The notes: generated by a model from the sequence alone, not told the origin. 64,000 nucleotides of DNA from Blastocatellia bacterium (GCA_026985075.1 JALSQX010000020.1:158966-222965), one strand, 5' to 3'. Shown: positions 1-17,800, counted from the stretch's first letter. Numbers and translations: made by a program.

Positions 1-172
1 AGCTCGCGCATATCTCGCTGCGAAGAACCTCGGGGTCGACGCGCCCCCTCAGGATGAGATGAGGATCATCCCATTTCGATCCCACTCGAGCGGTCGTCGC
101 TCGATCCACCACGCTATCTGTGATCGTCACCCTGTGCATCACTCGGTCGATGCTCGGTCCGCGCCGGCCATC

Positions 173-538
173 TCATCTCACACCTTTTTCGGCCAGTATC
201 TTCTCGACCTCCCGGATCAATTCCTCGGGATCGCTCGATTTGACGACGTATCGCTCCGCCAGCCAGGATGTATAATCATCCTGAAACGAGATGTAGGCCG
301 AGCACAGAATCACGGGCACCTCGGGATGGGCTTCGACCATGCGCTGCAATACGTCCAGCCCACTCTCCTGCTCCAACTTGATGTCGAGCACCACCGCGTC
401 GATCGGGTGCTCTTGGAGAATGCGCATCCCTTCAGTCCCCGAGGAAGCGGTGAATACGCGATGTCCGGCTTCGGTGAGAGCGTCTTCGTACAGCAGGCGA
501 ATGCTCTGTTCATCATCAATGACCAGGATCGTGGCCAT
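173..538 (-). CDS. Stand-alone response regulator receiver (CheY-like REC, no output domain)
   Basis: The protein MMATILVIDDEQSIRLLYEDAL...DAVVLDIKL has the phospho-acceptor Asp and conserved Lys typical of REC. The ATG at 538 sits 7 nt after an AAGGAG RBS. The track start at 541 is GTG. It overlaps the 3' end of the upstream kinase gene by about 23 nt, implying translational coupling. Confidence 0.85.
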   Translation of the reverse strand: MATILVIDDEQSIRLLYEDALTEAGHRVFTASSGTEGMRILQEHPIDAVVLDIKLEQESGLDVLQRMVEAHPEVPVILCSAYISFQDDYTSWLAERYVVKSSDPEELIREVEKILAEKGVR

Positions 539-2147
539 CACCCTGCTCCTTTGCTGGAGGAATTCTCACCAACACGGTACATCCATTCCCCCGCTCGCAG
601 ACGACATTGATACTGCCGCCGAGATTGTCGATGATTTGCTTGGCGGTATACAATCCCAGACCGCTACCCGTTGGTTTCGTCGTGAAGAACGGCTTGAACA
701 GATTGCTCAACGCCTCCTCGGGAATCCCCATCCCGGTATCGGCGATCTTGATGATCACCTGACCTTGCCCGACATCCGTCTCAATGAACAGGTCTCCGCC
801 CTCCGGCATAGCTTCGCCAGCATTATTCACCAGATTCTCCAGGCAATTATAGAGCTGCCGGCGATTGGCCATGATGGGAGGAATGTCGGTGTTCAGTTTC
901 AGGTGACAATTGATCCTGGTCGCCTTCCATAACGCTTGCTTTTCCTGACAGAGTACGGTGAGGATATGGTTGACGTCTACCGGCTCCCTCTCCGAAGCGC
1001 GCCGGGCATCGACGAATTTCACGAAATCTTTCAACAGATCCTCCAGGCGCTGAGCCTCGCGCATGATCGCCTGGGTATATTTGGCGTATGGGCTCTCGGC
1101 TCCCAATTTGCGAGTCAATTGACGGGCCAGTCCCCCAATGGCCACGATGGGATTTTTCACCGAGTGCGTTAATTGCAATACCATCTCCCCAGCAGCGATA
1201 TCCTCCTTGAGTCGGAGAATCTCCTCCTGACGCTCCTGAATTTGGCGATGCGCTTCCTCCAGCGTGCGCAGTTTTTCCTGCAGCTCGGCATAAGCCAGCC
1301 CGCGCTCCAGAGCCAGTGAGATTTGTTTGGCGAAAATGTGTACGGCGCGCAGATCATCCGATGAGACGTCCCGCCCGGTAACGAAATTATCGAGCAGGAT
1401 CGCCCCCAGCGGACGCTTCAGGTGAGAGAGCAGGGGGAGGACCCAGAACGTGGTCTGCCCATAGAATTCTCTGAGGGGTTTGGCAATCTCCATCTCGGGA
1501 TCGACGCGGCACACCGCCGCCGACGCGAACACCTGCTGGAATGGCGAATCATCGAGCGAGAAGCGAAACCGCTGGAGCACTCCCTCGAATTTGGTCCGTT
1601 CCCGCTCGTAGATCTCCGGCGAGTAGTGCATCAGATCGAGCGTGGTGAGTTTTCGATCCGAAATCTCATCCCAGATCCGATAGGCCTCATCGCGATCTCT
1701 CGGTCCCAGGGCGAAGACGCCAACGAGTTCCTGGTGGCTGGCCAACAAGGCTACACCTCGATTGAATCCCAGGCTCGTCCCCGCCGTCAGCGCGACCAAT
1801 CCCTTATAAAGGATTTCTTCGGGATCGAGCGCCCACTCGACCGTATTGGAGAGATGGAGAAGCGTGTCCAGAATCTCGTCACGAATCTCCAACATCTCGC
1901 GGAATTGGGTCAACTTATGCCCCCGCCATATGGCCGCCGCGACCAGTCGCATCAGGACATCGGCGACGCGGCGTTGTTCCTCGGAGAGTTGCTCCAGATT
2001 GAGGGGAAACGCCTCACAACTCATGCACATCTTCTGGAGCCGCTCTTTCAGCACATCCAAAGTCGTATCTTCCCGCCCGGTGAGGAAAGGACAAATAGTG
2101 GGATCTTCCGGGAAAAGGAGACAACGATGTGTGGCCACATTATTCAT
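516..2147 (-). CDS. Cytoplasmic GAF-domain sensor histidine kinase with an N-terminal Cys cluster
   Basis: It has an H-box (LTHSVKNPIVAIGGL) and HATPase_c motifs (NLVNNAGEAM, DTGMGIP, GSGLGLY). A central GAF-like region is present and there are no TM segments. The N-terminus carries C10, C20, C42 and C45 (CMSC). The ATG at 2147 follows a GGGGTGAAG RBS. The track start is TTG. Confidence 0.85.
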   Translation of the reverse strand: MNNVATHRCLLFPEDPTICPFLTGREDTTLDVLKERLQKMCMSCEAFPLNLEQLSEEQRRVADVLMRLVAAAIWRGHKLTQFREMLEIRDEILDTLLHLSNTVEWALDPEEILYKGLVALTAGTSLGFNRGVALLASHQELVGVFALGPRDRDEAYRIWDEISDRKLTTLDLMHYSPEIYERERTKFEGVLQRFRFSLDDSPFQQVFASAAVCRVDPEMEIAKPLREFYGQTTFWVLPLLSHLKRPLGAILLDNFVTGRDVSSDDLRAVHIFAKQISLALERGLAYAELQEKLRTLEEAHRQIQERQEEILRLKEDIAAGEMVLQLTHSVKNPIVAIGGLARQLTRKLGAESPYAKYTQAIMREAQRLEDLLKDFVKFVDARRASEREPVDVNHILTVLCQEKQALWKATRINCHLKLNTDIPPIMANRRQLYNCLENLVNNAGEAMPEGGDLFIETDVGQGQVIIKIADTGMGIPEEALSNLFKPFFTTKPTGSGLGLYTAKQIIDNLGGSINVVCERGNGCTVLVRIPPAKEQGDGHDPGH

Positions 2148-2214
2148 CAAGCTTCACCCCGCACCGGACATGAGCGCTCATTCGGCCCGACCGTCCGGCT
2201 CGCACGCCGCTTCA

Positions 2215-2243
2215 ATTGTAGTTTTTGTCTTGGCGGATTGCAA
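2215..2243 (-). promoter_or_regulatory. Near-consensus sigma70-type promoter for the HK-RR operon
   Basis: On the minus strand: -35 TTGCAA (2238..2243), a 17-bp spacer, -10 TACAAT (2215..2220), about 65 nt upstream of the kinase start. It stands out in a roughly 60% GC background. Confidence 0.4.
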
Positions 2244-2388
2244 ACATCCCCACGTGATCGAATCGACGCGACGCCCATTGAGACAGTCTCATCAGCCGTA
2301 AAGTGAGGAGGACAATCCGTAGACGATGCTCCCCCGGTCACCTCATGGAATCCAACATTCGCCAGACGGGATCGCTCTTCACGTATGG

Positions 2389-4149
2389 CTACGGATGGCG
2401 CTCTCTCGATCCACGAGGCCAGGGAATCGGCCACATGTCATCGCCGAATTCAACGACCCCGGCATCCGGCCCGCGCCCGCGAAAATCGCCGAGGTACACG
2501 GGATCGCCGGCATGCCATCTGATCGCCCGGGCCAGCGTCAGCGTGTGGCGCACCGTATCGACATGCCGCACGGCGATGGCCAGTTGCGCGCCGACTTTCA
2601 CGCGATCCCCCGGAATGAATCCGGCCCCATCAGTGAAGTACGAAGCGTCCACCACGGGGACGACGTTCCCCGAACCCGCCGATCTGGTGCGGGTCAATGG
2701 AACGCCGATATCGATACACCCGCACCCCTCGGCCAATCGAACATCGCCGACGGCGGGATCGACCAAGCGCGGTACGACGTGACGGTTCGCCGCGAAGAGA
2801 TTCAACACGCGCAACGGATCGTCCGGGAAGGCCACGGCCGGTTCTCCAAGATCCGCCGTCAGGTCCGTATCCGAACAATTCCCGGCGATGATGAGCGAGG
2901 CGCGAAGACACCGGGCCTCGTCCAGGCTCCCGAGTTGAACGCGACATGTGATGGACTGCTCGTGATCGCGCCAGCCATTCCCATAAAAGACATTATTCTT
3001 GATGACGTTGTCACTGAGATCGACATCGGAGATCCCCCAATTGGTGATCATCACGCCGGTTGATCCGTTACCCACAAACGCATTGTGATACACGCGATTT
3101 CCGTAAATATGCGGAGCCTCATCCCAGCCATTGATGATGAGGCCGCTCTCTTCATTGGCCAGGAACACATTCCGCCGGACGATCGTTTCCGCCGCCGCCA
3201 ATTGCATGCCCGATCCCCCCTTCTTTCCATCCGCTGAACGGCTCGCACCGACGAAGACGTTATATTCGATGAGATTGTGTCGGGCCACGAATTGCTCACC
3301 GGGCGCCCAGCGCGGGTGCACCTGCCAGACGACATCGAGATCTTTCTGCCAGGCGTTCTGGAAGTAATTCCGACGCACGATGGTGAACGACGTATCGATA
3401 TTGACCAGAGCGTGGCCAGCATTCAGGAACGTATTCCCCTCGATGAGCGTGTGATGTGCCCCTCGACTCACGCGGAGAGCATCGCCCCGTCCCGTCCGGG
3501 CATCTCCCCAACCCTCGAATACGTTGCCGATGATGCGATTGTCAGACGCCCCGTCAGAGACGAGGAGCCCAGCATATGCGGCGTGCGATTGTCGTCCCGA
3601 GGCGATGAACCTGTTTCCGATGATCTCATTGTGATGACCGTTTTGGATCTCACCCCAGCCGAACAAGGGATGGCGGAAGGTGATGCCTTCTACAGTGATG
3701 TATGACCTCTCGTTCAGGTTGATGAGCCATTCCGTCCGCTCGATGACCACCGTTTGACCGGGAACGGCACGGTAGGTGATTCTTCGCGCCGCCGTGCCCG
3801 ACCGCCCGGGGCGAAGAGTCTGGCGATACGCGCCGCCGAAAATGAGGACCGTGTCGCCGGGATGAACGGCGGCATTGGCGCGGCCGAGCGTCCGCCATCT
3901 CGTGGCCGGCGTCCGCCCATCATGGTCATCGTCACCTCGACGAACATCGACGTAATACGTCACGCCATCACGGTGTGCCGTCCCTGACATCGCCGTCCAT
4001 CCCATGGCGAGGCTCGCCAGGAATACCAACAGGAGCCAGCGATGCCGCCCGGCGAGAACGGAGCGATCACATGAGGTTCTGATTGTCATCGATAGTTCAT
4101 CGCGGATGTTCGAGATGTCCCCCGGGAAAACGTTCCAGGACGCCTTCAC
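2389..4149 (-). CDS. Secreted right-handed parallel beta-helix repeat protein (pectate-lyase-like fold), function unknown
   Basis: An N-terminal hydrophobic signal (RWLLLVFLASLAMGWTAMSG) is followed by repeated NxxxxN / IxGNxF / GNGxxG beta-helix coil motifs. The start is either GTG 4149 (with a GAGGGG RBS) or ATG 4089. It lies 12 bp downstream of the amidase gene, suggesting co-transcription. Confidence 0.7.
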   Translation of the reverse strand: MKASWNVFPGDISNIRDELSMTIRTSCDRSVLAGRHRWLLLVFLASLAMGWTAMSGTAHRDGVTYYVDVRRGDDDHDGRTPATRWRTLGRANAAVHPGDTVLIFGGAYRQTLRPGRSGTAARRITYRAVPGQTVVIERTEWLINLNERSYITVEGITFRHPLFGWGEIQNGHHNEIIGNRFIASGRQSHAAYAGLLVSDGASDNRIIGNVFEGWGDARTGRGDALRVSRGAHHTLIEGNTFLNAGHALVNIDTSFTIVRRNYFQNAWQKDLDVVWQVHPRWAPGEQFVARHNLIEYNVFVGASRSADGKKGGSGMQLAAAETIVRRNVFLANEESGLIINGWDEAPHIYGNRVYHNAFVGNGSTGVMITNWGISDVDLSDNVIKNNVFYGNGWRDHEQSITCRVQLGSLDEARCLRASLIIAGNCSDTDLTADLGEPAVAFPDDPLRVLNLFAANRHVVPRLVDPAVGDVRLAEGCGCIDIGVPLTRTRSAGSGNVVPVVDASYFTDGAGFIPGDRVKVGAQLAIAVRHVDTVRHTLTLARAIRWHAGDPVYLGDFRGRGPDAGVVEFGDDMWPIPWPRGSRERHP

Positions 4150-4160
4150 CAGTCATCCCC

Positions 4161-5894
4161 TCAACTGGTCAGCGGGGGATGCTTCAGATGAAAATCGGTG
4201 GCATCCTGGTAGGCTTTGGCGACGGCGAGTAATTCGGCTTCACCATAGAGCTTACCGATGAACGTGATACTCGTCGGCGTTCCATCTTTCCTGAATCCGT
4301 TGGGCAGGACCACAGCCGGATGTCCGGTCAAGTTGGTCAACAGGAGATTATGTCCACCGAACGAGGGAGCCACGTAGACATCCACCTGGGACATCACCTC
4401 GGCCATCGCTCGCATGACGAGCGTGCGCACGCGGTTGGCCTGAATGTACTCCACAGCCGGGATAGTGCGCGATTGACGAAAGACGTTGGGCCACGCGTTT
4501 TTGATTTGTCGCACGAGCAGGTCATCCCGGTTGCTGCGGGTGAGCTCATCGAACGCCGCCGCCGCCTCGGCATTGAGGATGAACGAGAGCGCCTCGATGG
4601 GATAATCGGGAAGCGCGATGGGGATGAGCTTCAATCCCATTTGGCGCAGCGTCTCCAGCGTCGCCTGGTCATGCGCTTTCCACTCCTCATCCTTGCGATC
4701 GCGCTCGAATTCGCTCTTGAGATAACCAATCCGCAATTGCCGAATGTCCAGATGGGGATCCCAATTGAACGGCAGATCGACCACGGTGAGATCTTTGCCA
4801 TCGGGTCCATAGATGGCATTGAAGACGACGGCGCAATCCTCCACGCTCCGGCACATCGGGCCGAGCTTATCCATGCTCCAGCTCAACGCCATGGCCCCAT
4901 AGCGACTGACGCGCCCGAAGGTCGGTCGCAGGCCGGTCACGCCACAGCGCGTCGACGGCGAGATGATGGATCCCCAAGTCTCTGAGCCGATGGAGAATCC
5001 CACCAGACCCGCTGCCGTGGCCGCTCCCGGCCCGGCCGACGAGCCGCTCGATCCCTGTTTGAGATTCCAGGGATTCTTCGTCTTCCCTCCGAACCAGACA
5101 TCGCCCCAGGCCAGCGCTCCCAGCGTCAGTTTGGCCACCAACACGGCACCGGCTTGTTCCAACCGCTTGACCACCGTGGCATCCTCATTGATGACTTGAT
5201 CCTTATAGGGCATGGCTCCCCAGGTCGTTCGATAGCCCTTGGTGGCCAACAAGTCTTTGGCGCCCCAGGGAATGCCGTGCAAGGGTCCGCGATAGCGTCC
5301 ACGGGCCAGTTCCTCATCGGCTCGCCTGGCTTGCTGCATGGCCAACTCCTCGGTCAGCGTCACGACGCATTGGAGCTGAGGATCGTATCGCTTCAAGCGG
5401 TCCAGGTACATCTCGGTCAGCTCCACCGAACTCACCTTGCGCGATTTGATCAACCGGCTGAGATGCACGACCGGCCAGAAAGCCAGCTCCTCTCGTCGAG
5501 AAGGGATGTCCGGGATGTTCACCTTGCTCATCTTGAATGGTCGCCGCCGGCGCGAAAACGTCATACCGGGCACGATGGGGTTGAACTGCAGAGCCGGTGG
5601 CACGCTGTTCTCCAGATGAACCGTCCGCAGCTTCTCGTAATTGCCGAGCAACTCATTGACGCCTTCCACCATGAGCTCGCGCTCAGCATCGGTGAACCGG
5701 AGGCCAGCAATCTGCTCGGCACACTGGATGGTCTCTTTGGTGATGCGGAGCTTTTTCTCCTCCTGGATCTTCGCCCAGAGTGCGCCAGGAAAGAGCGTAG
5801 ACGATAATCCCAGGGTGGAAAAATAGGCCATGAATCGGCGACGCGTCAGATGCGGCGCTTCGGCTGTCTCCCAGAGATTCTTTCCGTCAAACAT
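4161..5894 (-). CDS. Amidase-signature (AS) family amidase with a Tat signal peptide
   Basis: The Gly/Ser-rich amidase signature GSSGSSAGPGAATAAGLVGFSIGSETWGSIISPS is present. The N-terminus has a twin-arginine motif (TRRRFMAYFSTLGLSSTLFPGALWA). The ATG at 5894 was confirmed in the sequence. Confidence 0.85.
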   Translation of the reverse strand: MFDGKNLWETAEAPHLTRRRFMAYFSTLGLSSTLFPGALWAKIQEEKKLRITKETIQCAEQIAGLRFTDAERELMVEGVNELLGNYEKLRTVHLENSVPPALQFNPIVPGMTFSRRRRPFKMSKVNIPDIPSRREELAFWPVVHLSRLIKSRKVSSVELTEMYLDRLKRYDPQLQCVVTLTEELAMQQARRADEELARGRYRGPLHGIPWGAKDLLATKGYRTTWGAMPYKDQVINEDATVVKRLEQAGAVLVAKLTLGALAWGDVWFGGKTKNPWNLKQGSSGSSAGPGAATAAGLVGFSIGSETWGSIISPSTRCGVTGLRPTFGRVSRYGAMALSWSMDKLGPMCRSVEDCAVVFNAIYGPDGKDLTVVDLPFNWDPHLDIRQLRIGYLKSEFERDRKDEEWKAHDQATLETLRQMGLKLIPIALPDYPIEALSFILNAEAAAAFDELTRSNRDDLLVRQIKNAWPNVFRQSRTIPAVEYIQANRVRTLVMRAMAEVMSQVDVYVAPSFGGHNLLLTNLTGHPAVVLPNGFRKDGTPTSITFIGKLYGEAELLAVAKAYQDATDFHLKHPPLTS

Positions 5895-5946
5895 AACGCC
5901 TCCTCTCCAATGAATTCGGGTGAACGAGCAGACTGAACCGCCCGCG

Positions 5947-7272
5947 TTACTTCTCCAGCGCTCCTTGGTCGATTTTCAGGATCGTGTGGAGCAGCACATT
6001 GGCCCCATTGGCCATATCCTCGGGCCGGGTGTACTCCTTGGGCGAATGGCTGATACCGCCGACGCTGGGAACGAAGATCATGCCCGTCGGCGCGATACGC
6101 GCCATGTCTTGTGCATCGTGACCGGCGCCGCTCGGCATGAACATGTAACTCAATCCCAATTCCTCAGCAACCTGGGCGATGATCGCTCGCATCCGTTCAT
6201 CGGTGGGCGCAGGCACCGCCGTGACGTCCAGCGGCGTGAAGCGAATCGTGGTGCCCGTTTTTCTGGCGATGACCTCGGCTTCCCGTTTGATCTTTTGAAA
6301 CAGCATGTGAATTTTCTCGGCCGAGAGATCGCGCAACTCCAGGCTCATGACCACTCGACCGGGAATAACGTTGGGCGCGCCCGGTTCGGCGCGAATGCGT
6401 CCAACGGTGCCCACCTGGCGGCCCGGCACGCTGGTCACCACTCGGTTGACGGCGATGATCAGGTGAGCGGCAGCCAGTAGCGCATCGCGCCGATCGTTCA
6501 TCGGCGTCGTACCCGCATGATTGGCGAATCCCTCGATGGTCACCTCCCACCAGTTGATGCCCACAATCCCTTCCACGACACCAATATCGATGCCTCGGGA
6601 ATCGAGGACACTGCCCTGCTCGATGTGGAGTTCGATGAACGCAGCGATGTCGCCTTTGTGACGCACGACCTCCTCTAGCCGATCGGGATCACCGCCAATG
6701 GCGCGAATGCCCTCGCGAATCGTCTGGCCACTCTGACTCACCACCCGAAGCGCTTCCGGCCCCAGATCCCCAATCAGAGCGCGACTCCCCACCAACCCGC
6801 CCTCTTCATCAGAGAAGACGATGACCTCCAATGGATGACGCGTGACGAGGCCATGCTCCTGGAGAACCTGCACGCACTCGATGGCCGCGATGACGCCAAC
6901 ATCGCCATCATAATTTCCCCCGTGGGGAACGGAATCGATGTGCGAACCAAACATGATGGGTGGGAGATGCGGATCGCGCCCCTCCCGGCGACCGATGATG
7001 TTGCCGGCGGCATCGATGTGCACGCGAAGGCCCGCCTGCCGCATGAGCGACATGATGTACTGTCGCCCCTGAATATCGGCCTCGCTGAACGCCAGGCGAC
7101 TGACGCCGCCTTCGGGATTCTTCCCGAACTCGGCGAGTTGCAGAATGCGTTGCTCGATGCGCCGAGCATTGACGCGCAGATGGCGATAGGGGGCTTCGCG
7201 TTGGACAGCCCGAGGAGTGGATGTGAAGCAGACGAACAGACCGACCACGAGCATCGCACATCGATTTCGCAT
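5947..7272 (-). CDS. Secreted M20/M40-family Zn amidohydrolase (N-carbamoyl-amino-acid / allantoate amidohydrolase-like)
   Basis: It matches the M20 dimetal hydrolase family (GSHIDSVPHGGNYDGDVG, dimerisation region, SGAGHDA). The true start is ATG 7272 (MRNRCAMLVVGLFVCF signal peptide) with a GGAGGA RBS 6 nt upstream. The track ORF is N-extended to 7413. Confidence 0.8.
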   Translation of the reverse strand: MRNRCAMLVVGLFVCFTSTPRAVQREAPYRHLRVNARRIEQRILQLAEFGKNPEGGVSRLAFSEADIQGRQYIMSLMRQAGLRVHIDAAGNIIGRREGRDPHLPPIMFGSHIDSVPHGGNYDGDVGVIAAIECVQVLQEHGLVTRHPLEVIVFSDEEGGLVGSRALIGDLGPEALRVVSQSGQTIREGIRAIGGDPDRLEEVVRHKGDIAAFIELHIEQGSVLDSRGIDIGVVEGIVGINWWEVTIEGFANHAGTTPMNDRRDALLAAAHLIIAVNRVVTSVPGRQVGTVGRIRAEPGAPNVIPGRVVMSLELRDLSAEKIHMLFQKIKREAEVIARKTGTTIRFTPLDVTAVPAPTDERMRAIIAQVAEELGLSYMFMPSGAGHDAQDMARIAPTGMIFVPSVGGISHSPKEYTRPEDMANGANVLLHTILKIDQGALEK

Positions 7273-7472
7273 ACACTGTCCTCCACTCATTCGGCGACGT
7301 CTGGCCAATGGTTTCCCAGGATGACTCTCTGAGCGTCGTCCAAGAGAACCGATGGTGAGAGTGCCTCGACCTCGGTACCCACGTCCAGGGTTCTCCGAAT
7401 CCACTCTCCCCATAGCGCGAGCATCGCCTTCATACTATGCGGTGAAGTATAGCCACGGCCATGCCAGCGTCA

Positions 7473-7546
7473 AGGATCGCCCTTTACTGCCGCCGTTCAG
7501 CGATCCGGTTGGGGGAACGTCCCGCGTTTTGTGAAAGGGCGATCCT
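7473..7546. other. Large perfect inverted repeat (13-bp arms, 48-nt loop) between the M55 and M20 genes
   Basis: AGGATCGCCCTTT (7473..7485) and AAAGGGCGATCCT (7534..7546) are exact reverse complements. The element starts 16 nt after the M55 stop. The loop contains a small GGGAacgTCCC hairpin. Confidence 0.35.
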
Positions 7547-7561
7547 CTTGGCCAGAAACCC

Positions 7562-8464
7562 TCACGGCTCCAACGCCGGATTGTAGGTGAGCATGAATTC
7601 CAGAAATTTGGAGATCTCGATCATATCCTTGCCCACGAATCGAATGCTGTGCGAATCGGTGCGCTCAACGATCGGCAGGTAGCTCAAGATCTCCGGCGGA
7701 CGATAACTTTTGAATCGCACATCCAGTCGAATGGGCGTCTTGAGCTTGTAGGGTTTGAACTCATGGATGCGAGCAATCGCTCGTTTGACTTTCCGGCGGA
7801 TGAGGGCATAGGCCGCTTCCGGCGTCAATGTCTTCGCCGAATGGAAACTATAGGCCCATTTGACGATGGCTCCCTCAATATCGCCTAACAGCGCCTGCGC
7901 TTCTTTCACAATGGCATCATCGCCCGAGATCATGATGACCGGTACGTTGAAATGACCGGCGATAGCCGCATTGATTCCGGCCTCGGGCATGGAGATTCCA
8001 TTCAGACGGACATCGGTCAGGCGGGCACTGGAGAGCGTATGAGCGCGGACCCCGGCGAGATTGGTGGTGCTGGCGTGATATCCGAGGAAGATCACTCCAT
8101 CGAACGTCTCATCAATGCCCTGCATCATCATGAGCGGGCGCGGCCAGGAGCGGATGATCGTCACGCTCTTGGGGAGCTTTTCGATGAGGAGATTCTGGCC
8201 ATTGCCATGGGAATCGCTGACCACGATCTCCGTCGCGCCGGCCTCGAACGCCGCTGCGATGGCCGCGTTCACCTCTCCGGTCATGAACTCGCGGAACCGC
8301 TCATATTCGAATCCTCCCGGCCCTAACTGCTCGCCGGTCACCACACCGACGACGCCTTCCATATCGGCCGAGATGTAAATTTTCAGTTTCTCCTGGGCCT
8401 GTCCGGTGATGGCGAAACCCCAGACGAAGATGAAGAGTGCGAAGGAACGCACCACACGGTTCAT
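7562..8464 (-). CDS. Peptidase M55 D-aminopeptidase (DppA family)
   Basis: A signal peptide is followed by ISADMEGVVGV, VVSDSHGNG and other DppA-family hallmarks. The protein is 300 aa. Confidence 0.8.
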   Translation of the reverse strand: MNRVVRSFALFIFVWGFAITGQAQEKLKIYISADMEGVVGVVTGEQLGPGGFEYERFREFMTGEVNAAIAAAFEAGATEIVVSDSHGNGQNLLIEKLPKSVTIIRSWPRPLMMMQGIDETFDGVIFLGYHASTTNLAGVRAHTLSSARLTDVRLNGISMPEAGINAAIAGHFNVPVIMISGDDAIVKEAQALLGDIEGAIVKWAYSFHSAKTLTPEAAYALIRRKVKRAIARIHEFKPYKLKTPIRLDVRFKSYRPPEILSYLPIVERTDSHSIRFVGKDMIEISKFLEFMLTYNPALEP

Positions 8465-8564
8465 CGTCTCTCCCTCCTCAAAACGATGTCTTGAAAGCGG
8501 TCTGGAGACGAGGAAGCGCTGGCCTCATCGATTGCGCTTCCCCGCCTCCACAACCGGATTTCCT

Positions 8565-11500
8565 CTACTGACGATGCTTCCACGATGTGCGATCGATGGG
8601 CGCCGGTCGGGGAACCTCCCGAGGCGGATGCTTCTTGAGCAACTTCAACGCCTCCTCCACCGCGCGCTCCAACTGGGGATCGCGTCCTTGAATGACGAGG
8701 GCCGGCGTCTGTTCGACCTCGATATCGGGAGCCACGCCGACATTTTCCACGTCCCAGTGGCCATCGGTATTATAGAAGGCCACGCGGGGGGCGGTGATGA
8801 ATCCGCCGTCGATGAGCACCGGATAATCGTAGATGCCGATCAATCCGCCCCAGGTGCGCTTGCCGACCAGAGGACCGATCTTTCGCTTGCGGAAGTAATA
8901 GGGGAGCGCGTCGCCGCCGGAACCGGCAAATTGATTGATGATCATCACCTTGGGACCGAACACGGCGGCCGTCGGCGTATGAAAGGTCTTCCCATCACGG
9001 GTCGCCCAGTAATTCAACAGCGGCCGATCCATCAAATCGACCATGTAATCGGCAGCCGAGCCGCCACCGTTGAATCGCTCATCGATGATCATGCCCTGCT
9101 TGTCTTGCTGCGTGAAGTAGTAGCGATTGAAGTATTCGTATCCCGAGCGACCGGTGTTGGGCAAGTAGACGTATCCCAATCGTCCGCCGGAGAGCTCCTC
9201 GACCTTGCGACGGTTGGCCTCCACCCAGGCGCGAGTGCGCAATGCCCTCTCGCTGGCCACAGGCACAACGGTGACCAACCGCGATCCTTCCAACGTCGGT
9301 TGACTGTTGATGCGAATCACCGTCTGCTTGCCCGCCGTGCCTTCGAACAGACTGTACAGGTTCGTCGGAGGTCGAAGCTCTTTGCCGTTCACCTCGAGCA
9401 GGTAATCGCCTTCGGAGATTTGCAACCCTGGAGCGGTCAACGGCGCGCGCAGATCGGGATTCCAGTTCTCGCCGGTATAAATGCGCTTGATGCGATAGCG
9501 CCCATTTTCGATGGCGAAGTCGGCGCCCAACAGGCCCACCGGGACTCGTTCCGGCGTCGGCGCATCGCCACCACCGACATACGCGTGGCCGACGGTGAGT
9601 TCTCCGATGAGCATACTGAGCACGTAAGTCAAATCCGAGCGGTGCCTGACGTGCGGCAAGAAGGGGCGATACTTCTCGTACATCGCCGCCCAATCTTCGC
9701 CGTGCATGTGCTCATCGTAGAAGAAGTCGCGATAGATCCGCCAGGCTTCATGATAGATTTGCTCCCACTCGGCGCGGGGATCGATCTTGATCTCCATGGC
9801 GGCCGTCTTCAATTTCCCATCGCCCACTTTGGCCTTCTTCCCCGTGTCTACGATGCCCCACGTGTCCCCCGCTCGATAGAGGAGCTTCTTCCCCGTAGCC
9901 GACACCTTGTAAAACGTGATGCCGTCCATGAACCTTTCGGCTTTGCGCTTCTTGAGATCATAGCGATGCAACCGCAGACCTTCCTGATGAGGGATGCGTT
10001 CGAGATAAAAGAGCGTGTTGGCCACACCGGCCTGCAGATCCACGTAGTCGCGAGGAGGCACGTCGAGCGCGAGGATGCGTTGGTCGATGCCCTCCAGATC
10101 GATTCGCACAGTCACGCCTTCTTTCTTCTCGGCGGCTTCTTTTTCTTTCTTCGCTTCCTCCTTTTGCGGCTTCTCTGCCTTTTCTTCCTCGCCTTTTTCC
10201 TCATCGCTCTCAGGGAGGAGAGGCGAGGGCTCTTTGGCGCTCAGCACGATCAGATAGACGCCGCGGCGCACCGGTCGTTCGTAGGACGTCATGTCCAGCC
10301 AGCCGGTGTTGAGGGCGTAATTGGTGCTCGCCAGGAAGTAGAGATACTTTCCACTGGCATCGAACGCCGGAGAGATGGCGTCGGACAGCCCATCGGTGAT
10401 CTGGTGAACCTGACCATCTTTGAGCGAGTAGAGGAAGATGGCGTGCATGTGATTATCTAATCGTTTCGTGTAAGCGATCCATTGGGAATCCGGCGACCAG
10501 ACGGGATCGATGGTCCGCTCCGGGTGGCTGTAGGTATCGGTGTCTACTTTGGTCGCCTTTCCTGAATCGACATCCACCACCCAGAGATTCAAATGTTTGT
10601 CGGTGAACAACAGCTTCTGAGAATCGGGCGACCAGGCGGGCGTGTAATAGAAAGAGGGGTTCTCCAACGCGATGACTTTCGGTTTTTCCAATCCTTTTTG
10701 ATCGGAGATGACCAACTGATATTCGCCTCCTCGATCGGAGAACCAGGCGATACGACTCCCATCGGGCGACCAGACGGGATTGCGATCGTGAACGCCGGGA
10801 CTCTCGGTCAGATTCCGAGGATCGCCCTTCTTGGCCGGGACGGTGATGATGTCGCCGCGTGCCTCGAACACGGCTCTCACACCATGTGGTGAGAGGTCGG
10901 CGTGGCGGATCATCTTCCCCACTTTGACGAAATGTGGGCGCGCCCACGGGAGATCGCCATGGACCTCGATGACGAGCTGTTGGGATCGGCGGGTTCGCGG
11001 ATCGAAGAGATGGAGGTATCCAGCTTGCTCATACACGATGACGCCACCGCCCGCCGAGGCGCTCTTGATATCGAAATCCCGATGATGGGTCAATTGCTGG
11101 ACGCGATGGCGACGCAACTGATAGGAAAAGAGGTTCATCGTCCCGTTCCGATCCGAGAGGAAATAGATCGTGTCGCCAATCCACATGGGATCGGTATCAT
11201 TGCTGTCCTGGCGAGGAATTTTTTCGATTGAGTAGTCCGAGAGATCGATGATCCAGATGAACGCGGCCAGCCCCCCGCGATAGTGACGCCACGTCCCGAA
11301 GGCGTCGGGCACAGGGACGTAGGCCATGCGCCGACCATCGGGGGAATAGACGCCTTTATTGGCCATGGGCATGGGGAGCGGCTCGGGCATGCCACCGTCG
11401 ACCGAGATCGTCCAGAGCCGATTATAGGCTCTGGGAACGCTCGTCCGACTAGAGGCGAATACAATGGCCGTCCCATCCGGCGTCCAGCCCCGTACGCGAT

Positions 11501-11831
11501 CCGGTTCTGGATGATAGGTGAGCCGCCGAGGTTGGCCACCAGTGGCGGGAACGACGTACACATCGACGTTTCCATCGTACTCCCCGGTGAAGGCAATCAT
11601 CGATCCATCGGGAGAGAAACGCGGATTGGTCTCGCTGCCCGGCGCGCTGGTCAATCGGCGCGCTCGACCACCACGGCGAGAGACGATCCAGATGTCATTG
11701 GCATAAACGAACGCAATCTGATCGCGGCTCACCGTCGGCTGACGCAGCAGCCGCGTGCCTTGCCCCCGGACGGAGACGACGGAGCCGAGCAGAACGAAGA
11801 TGAGGATGAAAAAGAGGCGTTGGATTTTCAT
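8565..11831 (-). CDS. Tricorn-protease homologue (TolB-like beta-propellers + PDZ + S41 peptidase) with a signal peptide
   Basis: An N-terminal signal peptide (MKIQRLFFILIFVLLGSVVSVRG) is followed by repeated beta-propeller blades, a PDZ domain and a C-terminal S41 catalytic domain. The true start is ATG 11831 after an AGGAGG RBS. The track start at 11861 is GTG. A Glu/Lys-rich low-complexity linker is also present. Confidence 0.85.
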   Translation of the reverse strand: MKIQRLFFILIFVLLGSVVSVRGQGTRLLRQPTVSRDQIAFVYANDIWIVSRRGGRARRLTSAPGSETNPRFSPDGSMIAFTGEYDGNVDVYVVPATGGQPRRLTYHPEPDRVRGWTPDGTAIVFASSRTSVPRAYNRLWTISVDGGMPEPLPMPMANKGVYSPDGRRMAYVPVPDAFGTWRHYRGGLAAFIWIIDLSDYSIEKIPRQDSNDTDPMWIGDTIYFLSDRNGTMNLFSYQLRRHRVQQLTHHRDFDIKSASAGGGVIVYEQAGYLHLFDPRTRRSQQLVIEVHGDLPWARPHFVKVGKMIRHADLSPHGVRAVFEARGDIITVPAKKGDPRNLTESPGVHDRNPVWSPDGSRIAWFSDRGGEYQLVISDQKGLEKPKVIALENPSFYYTPAWSPDSQKLLFTDKHLNLWVVDVDSGKATKVDTDTYSHPERTIDPVWSPDSQWIAYTKRLDNHMHAIFLYSLKDGQVHQITDGLSDAISPAFDASGKYLYFLASTNYALNTGWLDMTSYERPVRRGVYLIVLSAKEPSPLLPESDEEKGEEEKAEKPQKEEAKKEKEAAEKKEGVTVRIDLEGIDQRILALDVPPRDYVDLQAGVANTLFYLERIPHQEGLRLHRYDLKKRKAERFMDGITFYKVSATGKKLLYRAGDTWGIVDTGKKAKVGDGKLKTAAMEIKIDPRAEWEQIYHEAWRIYRDFFYDEHMHGEDWAAMYEKYRPFLPHVRHRSDLTYVLSMLIGELTVGHAYVGGGDAPTPERVPVGLLGADFAIENGRYRIKRIYTGENWNPDLRAPLTAPGLQISEGDYLLEVNGKELRPPTNLYSLFEGTAGKQTVIRINSQPTLEGSRLVTVVPVASERALRTRAWVEANRRKVEELSGGRLGYVYLPNTGRSGYEYFNRYYFTQQDKQGMIIDERFNGGGSAADYMVDLMDRPLLNYWATRDGKTFHTPTAAVFGPKVMIINQFAGSGGDALPYYFRKRKIGPLVGKRTWGGLIGIYDYPVLIDGGFITAPRVAFYNTDGHWDVENVGVAPDIEVEQTPALVIQGRDPQLERAVEEALKLLKKHPPREVPRPAPIDRTSWKHRQ

Positions 11832-12231
11832 GATGATCCTCCTGCGAAATATGATTTCCACACATTCACCGATGAACAGATACGCGTTCTGTCACTCATC
11901 GGTTCATCTTTCATCCTTCGAGCATGCTCATGGCTCATGAGCGATTCTTCGACTCTATGAACCCGCTCGCCGCCCTCCATTGGCATAGCCCGCACGCGAT
12001 TGACCGCTCTCCATTCACCACCCACCTTCCGTACCAATGAACGAGATCCCCGAATGCCTCATTCTGTCGAGCGGAGGAGCGGTTGCGGACGTCGCCGAAT
12101 TTCGATCGAACCGCGAATCCCCACTCCATCTCGTCAGTCCTTTGATGGTCTCTTCGGCCATGATCCGCCATGGCCTCTCTCGCCCGATCGAGTTGACGCC
12201 ATTCACCTGATCGAACCCGATGTCGCTGCAT

Positions 12232-13215
12232 CTATTCATGACCCCGCACCGGTTGTGGACGATACGGTTCCTCCAGATACGCTCTCTCTTCTTCGGAGAG
12301 AGTGATGTCCAATGCGCCGACGGCTTCCTCCAGATGCTCGATCGTCCGCACGCCAATGATCGGGGCGGTGATACCCGGCTGATGGAGTAGCCAGGCCAGC
12401 GCGATTTGAGCTGGCGTGACGCCTCGACGTGCGGCCACAGCGACGACGCGATCGATGATCTCCAGGTTCGCCCGGTCGTAAAGTTGCCGGGTGTATGCAT
12501 CGGTTCGGGATCGTAATGTCTCGCCCCCTCCCTTCTCCGGTCTCGGTCGAGCCAGCAATCCTCTGGCCAGAGGCCCCCAGGGGATGACGCCAATGCCCTC
12601 TTCGCGACAGAGTGGCAGCATCTCTCGCTCCTCCTCGCGATAGAGCAAGTTATAATGGTTTTGCATACTGACCGGTCGCGTCCATCCATGTCGATCGGCG
12701 GTGTAGAGAGCTTTGGCGAATTGCCAGGCGTACATACTCGATGCGCCAAGGTACCTCACCTTGCCCGCCCGAACCAGATCGTCGAGCGTCTCCATCGTCT
12801 CCTCGATGGGCGTCGAAGAGTCCCAACGGTGAATCTGATAGAGGTCGACGTAATCCGTTTGGAGGCGTTTGAGCGAGGCATCGATTTGCGCTCGAATGTG
12901 CTTCCGGGAGAGACCCCGTTGATTGGGCACGCCTTCCTTCATCGGATAGTACACCTTCGTGGCGATGACCACATCGTCTCGATCGGCAACGAAGTCTCTC
13001 ACGGCTCGGCCCAGAATCTCTTCGCTCAGACCGAGGGAGTACATATTGGCCGTGTCGAAAAAATTAATTCCCAGTTCGAGCGCGCGTTGAATGATGGCTC
13101 GGGCTTCGTCCTCACCAATCGTCCACGGACGCCACTGCTTCGACCCGAATGTCATACAGCCCAGGCACAGGCGCGAGACTTGCAGTCCGGATCGGCCGAG
13201 ATTCACGTACTCCAT
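12232..13215 (-). CDS. Aldo/keto reductase (AKR) family oxidoreductase
   Basis: The protein begins MEYVNLGRSGLQVSRLCLGCMTFG and contains the AKR catalytic tetrad region. The start is ATG 13215 after a GGGAGGGG RBS. The track ORF is N-extended. Confidence 0.85.
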   Translation of the reverse strand: MEYVNLGRSGLQVSRLCLGCMTFGSKQWRPWTIGEDEARAIIQRALELGINFFDTANMYSLGLSEEILGRAVRDFVADRDDVVIATKVYYPMKEGVPNQRGLSRKHIRAQIDASLKRLQTDYVDLYQIHRWDSSTPIEETMETLDDLVRAGKVRYLGASSMYAWQFAKALYTADRHGWTRPVSMQNHYNLLYREEEREMLPLCREEGIGVIPWGPLARGLLARPRPEKGGGETLRSRTDAYTRQLYDRANLEIIDRVVAVAARRGVTPAQIALAWLLHQPGITAPIIGVRTIEHLEEAVGALDITLSEEERAYLEEPYRPQPVRGHE

Positions 13216-14772: not shown

Positions 14773-14870
14773 ATGCCGCTCTCTCCGTTGGTGGGAATCT
14801 CACTTCCTTCACGTTTTGTTTGTCGGGGTCTGTCTCTGAATGCCGCTCTCTCCGTTGGTGGGAATCTCAC
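14773..14870. repeat. Exact 31-bp direct repeat x2 (ATGCCGCTCTCTCCGTTGGTGGGAATCTCAC) separated by a 36-bp spacer
   Basis: The copies lie at 14773..14803 and 14840..14870 and are identical. They sit in the convergent 3' region, and the second copy overlaps the last codons of the 1203-aa membrane gene. There are only two units and no cas genes. Confidence 0.6.
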
Positions 14871-17800
14871 CCCCTCGAAGTCGAGTCCGCCCGTTCACTC
14901 TCCTTGTCGGCATGCCAAAGGGATGTCGACTGGTTTTTGCCTACGGAATTTCGCCCTGATAGATATTCCATATCGATGGCCATGAGCATACCCGCGATGA
15001 CCAGCGTGGCGATCAAAGGCCACTCCGTCCACCCCATTCTCAACGCCTGTCCGGCTTCGACGAAGAGCAGAAGCCCAATGATGTACATCAAAGGCGGTGG
15101 CATGGCGGTGACGATGAACAGATGCATCGCTGCCACTGCCCCGGCGCCTGAGAGGATGAGATGAATCAAGCGGCCGGTGACGATGAACGTCCAAGCGGGA
15201 TATCCGATGATCAACACCAGCACGATCGCCAGCCCGACGCTCAAGACACGCCGTTTTCCTCCTCGCCCAGGCATTCGAGCCTCACTGGATGGAACGAGCG
15301 ATGATCGCGCAGCCGATGCCGCACCGGAGAGGATCCAGCCGAGATAGATGGCCACCGGAATGAGATAGAACTCCAGCAGCCCAACATGACCGATGCGACC
15401 GATGATGATCCACGCGGAGACGAGGAAAATGGCCGCTATATGCTGATGAAGCGACCGGCGACGAAGCCAATACATATCCATACTGATGAGCGCCAGCAAT
15501 AGCGCCGCCAAAGCGCCACCGAGGTGACGGTGCGCCAGGCCAAACGTCAAGCCACTGCCAATGAGGACGTACACATGCGCCCCATACCACAGGACGCGCT
15601 CGCGCCACCAGTCATCCTCGCGGCGCTCATACCACCACTGTGCCAATACATGCAGTCCCGCCAAGGTAGCGAATGCCAGCCCATAGTGACCGATGCTCAC
15701 ACCATACGTCGCCAAGAATGTGTAGACGAGTACGCCGGAGGCTACTGAGGCGAGAATATAAGCCGTGATGAACGTCGATCGGAATCGTTGCTGGACATAA
15801 GGCGGGAGGATACCCTTCCAACCGATCGTCACGATGATGAAGCCAATGATGGCAATGAGGAGCGCCGACAGATCGTACTGACCCCAGGGAGCATTGACGC
15901 CGAGCAACAATAAGAGCACCCCGTTAGCCAGCCATAATCCCATGTTCGGCAGCCGCGGACGGAATCCATCCTCCCACGTGCGGCGCATCTCCATGCGGCT
16001 GAGAATGAGCAGGAAGAGGTAATAGACGCCCAGGCACAGCGTTGCCGAGATCGCTCCCGCGCCGATGACCAGCACGGCGAGGCCGGCCGTCACCAATCCC
16101 AGGGCGAGGAGCTTCGATGAGGTGGTTTTCTCCCGTTCGGCCAGTATGGTGAACAGGAGACCGAGGGCGAGAAGATAATTCGCTTCCACGCGCGGCGAAT
16201 AATGTTGTCCAATAGCCTGGGGGAGTGGCAGCCGCACGGCGAGATTCGGAATAGTTCGCCAGAGCACGTTGATCACCCCAATCACGATCGCTCCGTAACC
16301 GAGCGCCCTCAAGACGCGGAGAGGATGGAGGCGGCCAGCCACCGGATCAGCCGCCAGGCGACTTTGAACGGTCAGTGCCATCAGCCAGGCCAGCATGGCC
16401 AGGAGATTCAGCGGCGAACGCCAGATGGTCAACCCGATGGCCAGGAGCGAGAAAACGTGCGCGAAATGCATGACGCTGGCCCGACTCAGCAACTGGCGAT
16501 GACGGGCCATCACGGCATACCCGAGCAGATAGATCACGCTCATCACAGCGAAGGCCAATCCATAGATTTCCACTCGAGCACCGGCGAGCTGCAGCACAGC
16601 GAACAGTAAGAATCCCACGGCCACATGGGCCATCTCACATCCGAGGAGCAGGAAGGATCGAACGGCCCGTCCCATGGGCGGAGACCAGGCCGGCTCCCAC
16701 CCATAGCGCATCAAGGGAAACATCGCTGCCAGGATGAAGAAGCTGATCGGGTGGTACTGATTCCCGATGAGGCTGATGAGGAGCGTCGACAGAGCCACGA
16801 GGAGCGCCACACTCAAGGTGAATCGAATCCTGACAACGACACGATGAGAATCCTCGATCCGGCGAGCGCGATTGATCCACCATTGCGTGAGCATCATGAG
16901 CAGGAGAGAGAACACAGCGAGCACCAGCGTCGATTGCGTCGGGAATACACCGAAAGCGACCAGGACGACTCCCGCCGCCAGGTGAATCACGCTCAACGCG
17001 TATGACACAATGGCACCAGTCCATTCCGAGAGGGCGAACAGTATCAACGCTCCGATACCCAATGCCGCCATGACGGCCAACAAACTGTATGCCGCCGTCA
17101 CTGCCGCCAACACGAGCGTCAGGTATCCGGCAACGGCCAGAGCGCGCCGAGGATAGAGATGCCCGAACCATGCACTCGCCCAACTGTAGATACTCCCCAT
17201 GGCGAGGAGGAGGACGATGACCCAAGAGGCTTCTCCGAACAGGAGCACCGTCCCGGCGCTCGACGCGGCGAGGAGGAGGAGCGGCGCGGCGAAACCGATG
17301 AGTCCTTCCACAGCCCGCATCCCTCCTGATGGTGGCCTCGCCGGTTCGCGCTCGGCGCGACGGACAATGAGACCGCCCGCCCAGGAGATGGCCACGAGCA
17401 AGAGCGCCAGAGCGCTCCAGGAGCTTCCCGATGGCATGGTCACCTGAACCGATCCCGACGCTTGAAGCCGATAGGTCAAAACGCCGATCGTGTGCACCTG
17501 GACGAGCCCATCCCAGAACGCTTGCTGAGAAATGACGATCATCCCACCCAGGACGAAGGCGAACCAATAGGCCGACTCGGTCAACGCCGCCCAACGCCGC
17601 GAGCGAAAGCCGTTGCCAATGCCCACCAGCAGCACCACGCCGAGAGCAGCCAGCACGACGTGGTATTGCTGCCCGATTGAGAGAGAGAGCGTACCGGCCA
17701 ACACGAACGCGAGGACTCCCCATCCCAACATGCCCAACAGGATACCGATTCCGATGGCGCGATTGAGCCAGGCGAGGGTGAAGAGCCATCCCGCAGCCAG

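Follow-up and report, generated by a model that had tools for sequence, protein, structure and literature searches.

Do eight neighbouring genes on one strand of a Blastocatellia genome, five of them encoding exported hydrolase-type proteins and two of them a histidine kinase and a receiver, form a single functional system? We examined this question in the window, the stretch of 64,000 nucleotides that was analysed, using gene boundaries from an independent gene call on the source contig (L173; window coordinate = 15895 − L173 coordinate). This call recovered all eight genes on the minus strand where the preliminary description had placed them, and searches with Pfam and family profiles returned the domains it had named. 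The five hydrolase-type products had also been described as extracytoplasmic, in agreement with the signal-like hydrophobic N-terminal segments of the tricorn, M55, M20 and beta-helix proteins and with the Tat motif of the amidase. The source-contig gene call extends the co-directional run past the left edge of the region with a GalT-like gene, QueF and a thioredoxin-family gene. We conclude, with a probability of about 70%, that this 13-kb stretch brings together at least four independent units, side by side and in the same direction, in an arrangement specific to the lineage, and that the kinase-receiver pair opens a separate sugar-metabolism operon. The first unit would be a cytoplasmic aldo-keto reductase (AKR), the second a Sec-exported tricorn-type protease with an exported M55 aminopeptidase, and the third an exported M20 ureido-amidohydrolase with a Tat-exported AS amidase and an exported beta-helix protein. 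The fourth would be a cytoplasmic two-component pair heading an operon of kinase, receiver, GalT-family and then QueF genes that continues past the left edge.

Gene-order conservation does not bear out the earlier view that the 13-kb stretch is a single functional supercluster with the kinase and receiver at its end. The order was kept only in a sister genome that is 94% identical (L081) and was absent from all other kinase loci. Amidase orthologues (72–75% identical) had unrelated neighbours in all three loci surveyed, which came from Gemmatimonadota, KSB1 and a JGI contig. The same was true of M55 orthologues (75–83% identical) in 31 of 31 loci of at least 6 kb, of which 25 had space for a tricorn gene and 23 for an M20 gene. 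The M20, amidase, beta-helix and AKR genes and the kinase-receiver pair were absent near M55 in all 31 loci, and a tricorn homologue was found 6 kb from M55 in one. The M55 orthologue adjoined another exported hydrolase in 15 of the 31 loci, so some loose functional clustering of exported hydrolases is possible; the neighbours varied by lineage, with Amidohydro_3, beta-lactamase family and M28 genes in five loci each. These neighbourhoods speak neither for nor against a dedicated pathway for D- or N-blocked peptides. The peptidase supercluster is a set of ordinary, independently distributed exported hydrolases. We would regard them as individually conserved and individually mobile housekeeping enzymes with a presumed role in periplasmic or extracellular peptide and amide scavenging.

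The intergenic distances fall into two groups. Wide gaps come before the tricorn (approximately 400 nt), M20 (289 nt) and kinase (241 nt) genes, and narrow ones separate tricorn from M55 (100 nt), M20 from amidase (52 nt), amidase from beta-helix (11 nt) and kinase from receiver (−23 nt). Upstream of the kinase gene, the sigma-70-like element TTGCAA-17-TACAAT (2215..2244, minus strand) forms an island of perfect conservation between the window and L081; the rest of the spacer is 66% identical, with many indels. It is a candidate promoter from which the kinase-receiver pair would be transcribed apart from the hydrolases. The best sigma-70-like match of the region, TTGACG-16-TATACT (7446..7473, minus strand; 10/12), lies 5′ of the M20 gene and is likewise conserved in L081; the M20, amidase and beta-helix genes are probably expressed from it as one transcript. 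The region contained no convincing intrinsic terminator, and transcription may continue from the beta-helix gene into that of the kinase.

Archaeal tricorn is a cytosolic giant protease. Its counterpart in the window, an S41 protease of 1088 aa (8565..11831, minus strand), contains Tricorn_C1, PDZ_Tricorn, S41 and PD40 domains (Pfam), and its propeller-C1-PDZ-S41 architecture is collinear over the full length with the T. acidophilum enzyme (1K32; residues 37–1078 against 15–1036, E 3e-102). It differs from 1K32 in an insert rich in K and E and in a signal-like peptide at its N-terminus, and is therefore probably exported. The M55 protein (7562..8464, minus strand) matched Peptidase_M55 with 321 bits against a cut-off of 25 (Pfam, E 6e-96) and belongs over its whole domain to the family of the B. 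subtilis D-aminopeptidase DppA (1HI9, E 5.9e-46). Its assignment as a DppA equivalog was rejected (211 bits against an NCBIfam cut-off of 430). In contrast to DppA, it has a signal-like N-terminus and sits outside any dpp transport operon. The M20 protein (5947..7272, minus strand; 441 aa) cleared the hydantoinase/carbamoylase model TIGR01879 (442.8 against 204) as well as NF006771 (469 against 399). Of known enzymes it is closest to N-carbamoyl-L-amino acid hydrolase and the allantoate amidohydrolases, and the nearest solved structure is the N-carbamoyl-L-amino acid hydrolase 3N5F (E 4.6e-109). Unlike these enzymes it bears a 34-aa signal-like extension, which makes a periplasmic location probable. 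Its start at 7272 was taken from the source-contig gene call, and a longer reading frame was ruled out because a 1-nt indel lies upstream of this position in L081. No hydantoinase or ureide-pathway partner gene was found near it.

The AS amidase (4161..5894, minus strand; Pfam Amidase, E 6.3e-80) carries the Tat signal TRRRF, seen in the window as TRRRFMAYFSTLGLSSTLFPGALWA, a twin-arginine motif followed by a hydrophobic stretch. The RRxF residues (R18, R19 and F21) are invariant in nine orthologues from several phyla, as are K213, the G281–S286 stretch and S309, which presumably supply the catalytic triad. It shares the amidase-signature fold and catalytic stretch with the peptide amidase Pam (1M21) and GatA at the level of remote similarity only; in contrast to them, it belongs to a distinct and very highly conserved Tat-exported family (orthologues 71–80% identical across phyla) that is extended at the N-terminus by about 140 aa. 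The beta-helix protein (2389..4149, minus strand) is a right-handed helix by its Beta_helix and NosD matches (Pfam) and carries a precomputed Pel9A-like_beta_helix annotation. Its N-terminus is akin to GH120 xylosidase (3vst, E 6.5e-7) and lacto-N-biosidase, and the protein appears more like carbohydrate-active enzymes than like peptidases. The AKR (12232..13215, minus strand; 327 aa; Aldo_ket_red, E 2.6e-86) is predicted to be cytoplasmic, and it is its gene that the gap of about 400 nt separates from tricorn.

The hydrolases alone, as tricorn-M55 and/or M20-amidase-beta-helix, could represent a recently assembled functional island of this lineage, not kept elsewhere, whose products work one after another on a single class of extracellular substrate. 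The short gaps of 100, 52 and 11 nt and the export of all five products are in keeping with such an island, as are the frequent location of the M55 orthologue beside another exported hydrolase in other lineages and the presence, in L092, of an AKR 69% identical to that of the window directly upstream of the amidase orthologue. However, no pairing among the five was seen in the three amidase or 31 M55 loci, the partners change with every lineage, and the high identity that the amidase and M55 retain across phyla points to enzymes that are sufficient on their own. An island of this kind is possible, and we consider it rather unlikely.

The remaining two genes encode the two-component pair. The sensor histidine kinase gene ends at 516 and starts at 2147 (ATG) or 2150 (TTG) on the minus strand. 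The preliminary description took its product to be soluble, and this held, since no 19-residue window exceeds a Kyte-Doolittle value of 1.27 and there is no transmembrane segment. The catalytic part has a HATPase_c match (E 2e-22) and a DHp/HisKA match of 26.8 bits, just below the Pfam cut-off of 26.9; the H-box histidine H329 and the ATP-binding boxes, N439/N443 (N), D471–G475 (G1) and G495–L500 (G2), are invariant among the aligned orthologues, and so are the cysteines C436, C518 and C524. A GAF-like domain occupies about residues 105–290 (1281..1838, minus strand). It includes an alpha/beta domain at residues 110–260 predicted by AF2 with pLDDT of about 90 or more. GAF_3, GAF_2 and GAF matches there had E values of 2e-4 to 4e-3, all under the gathering scores, and remoter homologues bear annotated GAF domains. 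The predicted fold resembles those of ZraS, the top Foldseek match, and HK853. The protein is an NtrB/AtoS-type HisKA kinase whose input consists of an invariant four-cysteine (Cys4) module followed by the GAF-like domain.

Conservation of the four N-terminal cysteines had been set beforehand as a refutation check. They are invariant and fixed in spacing in 32 of 34 orthologues, and the two exceptions look like start-codon miscalls. Counted from the TTG at 2150, they are C10, C20, C42 and C45, each number being one lower if the ATG at 2147 is the start. Their pattern, C-x9-C-x21-C-x2-C (codons 2016..2123, minus strand), is invariant in alignments A1 and A2 and is kept as C-x10/11-C-x21-C-x2-C in distant relatives. 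The module had no Pfam match at E ≤ 10; the best PDB match of its profile, at E 0.17, was noise, and it occurs in only eight cluster representatives among the 1.84e9 protein clusters searched. AF2 confidence over the module was low (pLDDT 52 or <55), and the models are unreliable there. Cys4 is the only modestly novel element of the locus, an undescribed candidate sensor module whose genomic associates are glucan and nucleotide-sugar genes.

The stand-alone receiver (REC; 173–538 by the gene call, alternatively 173..541, minus strand; 121–122 aa) is encoded by a gene that overlaps that of the kinase by 23–26 nt. As described earlier, it is without an output domain: Response_reg (E 1.3e-21) was its only Pfam domain. 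The acidic pocket (D9 and D10), the phospho-acceptor D53 and the conserved S81 and K101 are invariant in ten orthologues, and the same ten share an invariant alpha4-beta5 face, LCSAYxSFQxDxxSWLA. Identification of the receiver as CpdR (50.3 bits against a cut-off of 180) or as DVU0259_DivK (47.3 against 160) was rejected. Nothing was found in support of the earlier suggestion that it acts on a protease.

The neighbourhood of the pair points instead to sugar metabolism. Kinase and receiver are adjacent in 12 of 12 loci, and in the surveyed kinase loci the gene after the receiver is always a sugar gene and never a peptidase gene, often 0–12 nt away or overlapping. An amylopullulanase-like GH57 gene and a GalT gene lie downstream of the receiver in four loci (L082, L089, L084 and L174), and another four (L086, L087, L088 and L001) have in that place an NTP-transferase/PGM fusion, a sugar-1-phosphate nucleotidyltransferase/phosphohexomutase of about 832 aa. 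The GH57 gene matches the Aquifex aeolicus amylopullulanase AaApu (8ZYI, E 1e-106), although its products are about 680–707 aa compared to 477 aa for AaApu. In the genome studied here, the GH57 gene is missing from the operon and a GalT-family gene directly follows the receiver on the source contig, starting 161 nt past the REC stop. Its first 11 nt (ATGCGCGAGCT, M-R-E-L) lie in the window (1..11, minus strand), where the edge truncates it. The product is a GalP_UDP_transf protein of 362 aa that scores 118.7 bits against a cut-off of 102.1 for TIGR00209 (galT_1). The kinase loci form two deeply separated clades, with kinases 45–52% identical, and in both of them a hexose-phosphate or NDP-sugar enzyme comes right after the receiver, whereas the other flanks differ between the clades. 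QueF, ROK and Pan_kinase flanks are also syntenic within each clade, and common descent, rather than selection, may account for part of the synteny that the closer Acidobacteria-like loci show, with ROK upstream and QueF downstream.

We tentatively propose a mechanism for the pair. The Cys4 module would bind a metal or Fe-S centre, or present redox-active thiols, and so set autokinase activity; the phosphoryl group would pass to D53 of the single-domain receiver. The latter, lacking a DNA-binding domain, would use its invariant alpha4-beta5 surface to act on a protein partner, which would in turn control alpha-glucan or nucleotide-sugar metabolism. A more specific version is possible and still the less probable outcome: Cys4 would be an undescribed Fe-S or metal/redox sensor domain found only in a small family of soluble GAF kinases from Acidobacteriota, Dadabacteria and Thermodesulfobacteriota, and the kinase would work at the post-translational level via its receiver, whose direct binding to GH57, GalT or the nucleotidyltransferase/mutase fusion would gate alpha-glucan breakdown or NDP-hexose supply.

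Known systems offer partial parallels for the pair. Hik2/Chloroplast Sensor Kinase (CSK) is likewise a soluble histidine kinase with an N-terminal GAF region as input, in which a cysteine-ligated [3Fe-4S] cluster exerts redox control of the autokinase; it lacks a recognisable Cys motif, and the one cysteine implicated is C19 within the GAF domain (PMC6949291). Compared with this published description, the kinase of the window has a separate module of four invariant cysteines before its GAF-like domain, with a putative cofactor. NreB, the staphylococcal/Bacillus O2 or sulfide sensor, is described in PMC13478379 as a cytoplasmic kinase whose Cys cluster binds Fe-S. The NreB cysteines lie inside a PAS domain, whereas Cys4 has no Pfam family or PDB match. 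The best partial HisKA-HATPase matches of the kinase were AtoS (E 1.3e-46) and ZraS (E 1.9e-36), and those of the receiver were the NtrC and AtoC receiver domains. All of these scores are far under the equivalog cut-offs of the AtoS/ZraS-NtrB/NtrC systems; unlike AtoS and ZraS the kinase is without a membrane or periplasmic sensor, and unlike NtrC-type regulators the receiver is without AAA+ and HTH output domains.

Alternatively, the pair could sense redox or metal stress in general and signal to a distant pathway, for instance as a phosphate sink or a phosphorelay branch, and lie next to sugar genes through inherited gene order. A receiver without an output domain, non-sugar flanks (QueF, ROK and Pan_kinase) that are likewise syntenic within clades, and the lack of GH57 in the operon of this genome would all fit such a sensor. 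Against it, two deeply separated clades share the post-receiver sugar enzyme, often translationally coupled, while their other flanks differ, and we consider it unlikely. A model in which the eight genes together make up a single extracytoplasmic system for the catabolism of unusual (D- or N-blocked) peptides, with the Cys4 kinase and the receiver as dedicated regulators and the receiver acting on a protease, is highly improbable: the genes are co-directional with five products exported, their order is kept in the sister genome, and M55, the carbamoylase-type M20 and the AS amidase are chemically compatible with processing of blocked or D-peptides, but the order is lost beyond that 94%-identical genome, the kinase-receiver pair goes with sugar genes and is preceded by a conserved promoter-like island of its own, both its members are cytoplasmic while the hydrolases are exported, and the beta-helix protein resembles carbohydrate-active enzymes.

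Suggestive co-directional neighbours in a MAG do not by themselves warrant a pathway reading without a synteny check, which here dissolves the 13-kb supercluster into independently distributed exported hydrolases. Among these, the Tat-exported AS amidase (>70% identical across phyla) and the exported M55 peptidase represent abundant soil enzyme families without a characterised close relative. The check also brings out a two-component pair with an invariant, unannotated Cys4 input; in poorly studied phyla, the genes of this pair consistently occur with those for glycogen and nucleotide sugars. If Cys4 binds a cofactor, it would be a new sensor domain and the pair a candidate redox-to-carbon-storage switch. 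If the pair indeed gates sugar metabolism, it would couple cellular redox or oxygen status to the use of stored carbon.

The minus strand of the window between 173 and 13215 carries eight consecutive genes, as established by ORF listing and profile searches. They encode a cytoplasmic aldo-keto reductase (AKR; 12232–13215), a tricorn-type S41 protease (8565–11831), an M55 peptidase, an M20 amidohydrolase of the hydantoinase/carbamoylase family (start at 7272), an amidase-signature amidase (4161–5894), a right-handed beta-helix protein, a HisKA/HATPase kinase whose GAF match falls below threshold (516–2150) and a receiver-only protein (stop at 173). The M55 gene lies between those of the tricorn and M20 proteins, and the beta-helix gene between those of the amidase and the kinase. 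Genes called independently on the source contig (L173; 255,763 bp) matched the boundaries of the preliminary description exactly, from the AKR start at 13215 to the receiver stop at 173, with probable starts at 11831 for tricorn, 7272 for M20 and an ATG at 2147 for the kinase. Signal-like hydrophobic N-terminal segments were present in the tricorn, M55, M20 (a 34-residue extension) and beta-helix proteins, and the amidase N-terminus shows TRRRF followed by a hydrophobic stretch. No such segment was found in the kinase, the receiver or the AKR, and no stretch of the kinase is hydrophobic enough for a transmembrane segment (maximum KD19 1.27). The four kinase cysteines, C10, C20, C42 and C45, were present. 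Since the genes, boundaries, domains, export segments and cysteines were all as described, the original sequence observation is confirmed.

Two additional reading frames were considered. A longer M20 ORF from 7413 was ruled out because a 1-nt indel in the sister genome L081 breaks its frame and the gene call starts at 7272; a plus-strand ORF of 684 aa (8406–10460) was set aside as antisense to the tricorn gene. Just upstream of the region, 14867–18478 on the minus strand encodes a highly hydrophobic, apparently polytopic membrane protein of 1203 aa with no Pfam or NCBIfam match. A 36-nt direct repeat (14773–14808 and 14840–14875; 94% identical, 67-nt spacing) coincides with the 3′ end of this gene or falls a little downstream of it.

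The eight genes had been read as a single 13-kb supercluster for peptide and amide catabolism ending in the kinase and receiver. Comparative genomics was decisive on this question and did not bear the reading out: the gene order is absent from the amidase and M55 loci, and the kinase-receiver pair is found with sugar genes. A search with the M55 protein returned 80 metagenomic loci (75–83% identity, mostly soil metagenomes). Neighbours were counted in the 31 of these with at least 6 kb of sequence, 25 of which had room for an upstream tricorn gene and 23 for a downstream M20 gene. None of the 31 contained an orthologue of the M20, amidase, beta-helix, AKR, kinase or receiver genes, and a tricorn homologue was seen in a single locus, 6 kb from M55. 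The neighbours instead varied by lineage, with Amidohydro_3 proteins, beta-lactamase-family hydrolases and M28 peptidases in 5 of the 31 loci each. This variation indicates at most a loose tendency of exported hydrolase genes to co-locate, without a defined pathway. The differing exported hydrolases adjoining exported M55 orthologues can be seen, for example, at L119:8248-9954, L094:8488-9939 and L099:7132-9012; the Amidohydro_3 partners belong to a D-aminoacylase-type family and the beta-lactamase-family partner carries DUF3471.

The Tat-exported amidase is one of an abundant family, with more than 8000 homologues at E ≤ 1e-30, the best 120 being 71–80% identical to the window protein; the family spans Calditrichota, Planctomycetota, Gemmatimonadota, KSB1, Acidobacteria and others. 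Its N-terminal extension of about 140 aa is conserved, with the twin-arginine RRxF invariant across phyla. No close characterised or solved relative was found; GatA (E 1e-58) and the peptide amidase Pam (E 1e-46) are remote matches only. Three orthologues on long contigs had neighbours entirely different from those in the window, and tblastn of all window proteins against these loci recovered the amidase alone, plus an AKR in one. In that locus (L092:7663-10704; JGI 3300037722), the amidase orthologue has the AKR, 69% identical to that of the window, as its immediate upstream neighbour. The tricorn, M55 and M20 genes intervene in the window, where 6.3 kb separates AKR from amidase. The adjacency could be an ancestral arrangement or a coincidence.

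The spacing of the genes is uneven. Wide gaps separate AKR from tricorn (about 400 nt), M55 from M20 (289 nt) and beta-helix from kinase (241 nt), and the gaps are tight between tricorn and M55 (100 nt), M20 and amidase (52 nt) and amidase and beta-helix (11 nt); the kinase and receiver genes overlap by 23 nt. The top sigma-70-like match in 15 kb, TTGACG-16-TATACT at 7446–7473, precedes M20, and a second candidate, TTGCAA-17-TACAAT at 2215–2244, precedes the kinase. Spacers were compared with L081, an Acidobacteria MAG and the sole close relative, whose proteins are 82–96% identical. The beta-helix/kinase spacer is 66% identical with large indels, and a perfectly conserved island within it holds exactly the TTGCAA-17-TACAAT element. 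The M20 promoter-like element is also kept in L081. The M55/M20 intergenic region (7273–7561, minus strand, against L081:4488-4778), about 170 nt of which follow the promoter-like site as a leader, is 89% identical, far above the value for the beta-helix/kinase spacer. A structured leader upstream of M20, suggested by this conservation, was rejected, as the fold was no better than shuffled sequence (z-score −0.03). Searches of the intergenic regions gave no Rfam match at E ≤ 0.1, no tRNA and only chance-level repeats, and no convincing terminator was found in the region.

The peptidase part of the region is ordinary. Over its whole length the tricorn homologue can be aligned with Thermoplasma tricorn, from which it differs by a signal-like N-terminus and a Lys/Glu-rich low-complexity insert; the latter, ESDEEKGEEEKAEKPQKEEAKKEKEAAEKKEG, occupies approximately residues 555–590, separating the propeller region from the C1 domain. 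The M55 protein matches Bacillus subtilis DppA and scores below the equivalog cut-off. The M20 protein is closest to N-carbamoyl-L-amino-acid hydrolases and ureidoglycolate or allantoate amidohydrolases. The beta-helix protein resembles carbohydrate-active proteins of the pectate-lyase, GH120 and GH136 types rather than peptidases. The hydrolases plausibly serve for scavenging in the periplasm or outside the cell; that they specifically process D- or N-blocked peptides is speculation.

The kinase and receiver have a different genomic association. Full-length orthologues of the kinase number about 50 (44–94% identical), with named sources in Acidobacteria, bacterium HR10, Candidatus Dadabacteria and Thermodesulfobacteriota/Deltaproteobacteria. 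A genome-collection scan with the kinase alignment left one usable locus (L001), as generic HATPase peptides drew 79 unrelated kinases among 80. The receiver gene directly follows the kinase in all 12 loci compared. In the Acidobacteria/HR10-like loci (L082, L089, L084 and L174; kinase 49–63% identical), a GH57 enzyme and a GalT-family nucleotidyltransferase come next, and a ROK glucokinase-like gene is often upstream. In the Dadabacteria/Thermodesulfobacteriota loci (L086, L087, L088 and L001; 45–49% identical), the next gene encodes a fusion of about 832 aa between a sugar-1-phosphate nucleotidyltransferase and a phosphohexomutase. The receiver and downstream genes are often 0–12 nt apart or overlapping. 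The operon GH57 protein matched the characterised Aquifex aeolicus amylopullulanase at E 1e-106; no GH57 gene was found in the entire 64-kb window. The gene that follows the receiver in L081 starts with MRELRFDPLRNRWVIV and continues to CPFC, a GalT-type N-terminus. Window positions 11–1 on the minus strand read ATGCGCGAGCT, encoding MREL, and past the receiver the source contig carries a GalT-family gene of 362 aa (L173:15884-16972) followed by QueF. The kinase and receiver genes are thus the first two of a probable operon cut by the left boundary of the region, rather than the end of a peptidase cluster. The GalT-family protein has a CPFC zinc-type motif and H-T-H-S-Q, where classical GalT has H-P-H-x-Q; it is 70–77% identical among Acidobacteria-like loci and more conserved than the kinase, with UDP- or ADP-hexose as candidate substrates. 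A literature search for a kinase/GH57/GalT system returned nothing relevant.

The specific claims about the kinase, that it is soluble and that its cysteines are conserved, were supported. In an alignment of 34 orthologues, the N-terminal C-x9-C-x21-C-x2-C was invariant with fixed spacing (consensus YCWxIxDDPSVCPYI...R.REKCIxCEEL); two sequences without the first cysteine begin three residues past it and look like start-codon miscalls. The preliminary description had named a lack of cysteine conservation in orthologous kinases as a refutation, and this did not occur. H329 and the N, G1 and G2 boxes are also invariant, so the kinase should be catalytically competent. The family also conserves three cysteines of the catalytic domain, C436 in the N-box (YNCLEN) and C518 and C524 near the C-terminus (VxCExxxGC). 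The 95-residue N-terminus had no Pfam match even at E 10, and a profile of the four-cysteine (Cys4) module matched no PDB chain. Against 1.84 billion cluster representatives, this profile recovered 8 proteins at E ≤ 1e-3, mostly kinases of about 540 aa, and distant matches retained the cysteines as C-x10/11-C-x21-C-x2-C. AF2 modelled the GAF-like, DHp and catalytic domains of the full-length kinase with confidence, and Foldseek matched the model to standard kinases such as ZraS and HK853. Residues 1–60 had pLDDT values of 34–56 and the module alone a mean of 52, too poor for a fold search or cysteine geometry. The closest functional precedents for this kinase are soluble Fe-S-containing kinases: Hik2/CSK, with a GAF domain and a [3Fe-4S] cluster (PMC6949291), and NreB, with a PAS domain (PMC13478379). 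In the Pfam and PDB searches the Cys4 module showed no homology to either.

The receiver is more conserved than the kinase, with ten orthologues 53–92% identical. Residues D9, D10, D53, S81 and K101 are invariant among them, as is the segment LCSAYxSFQxDxxSWLA in beta4-alpha4-beta5. Receivers usually pass on their output through this face, and its invariance in a protein with no output domain suggests that the receiver acts by protein-protein contact. Cut-offs for CpdR, DivK-type and other named families were not reached; the nearest relatives are NtrC/AtoC-type receiver domains, in keeping with the AtoS/ZraS-like kinase core. What is modestly novel in the region is the Cys4 input module, which is invariant and unannotated. 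The small kinase family that carries it is, together with its single-domain receiver, consistently associated with genes of alpha-glucan and nucleotide-sugar metabolism.
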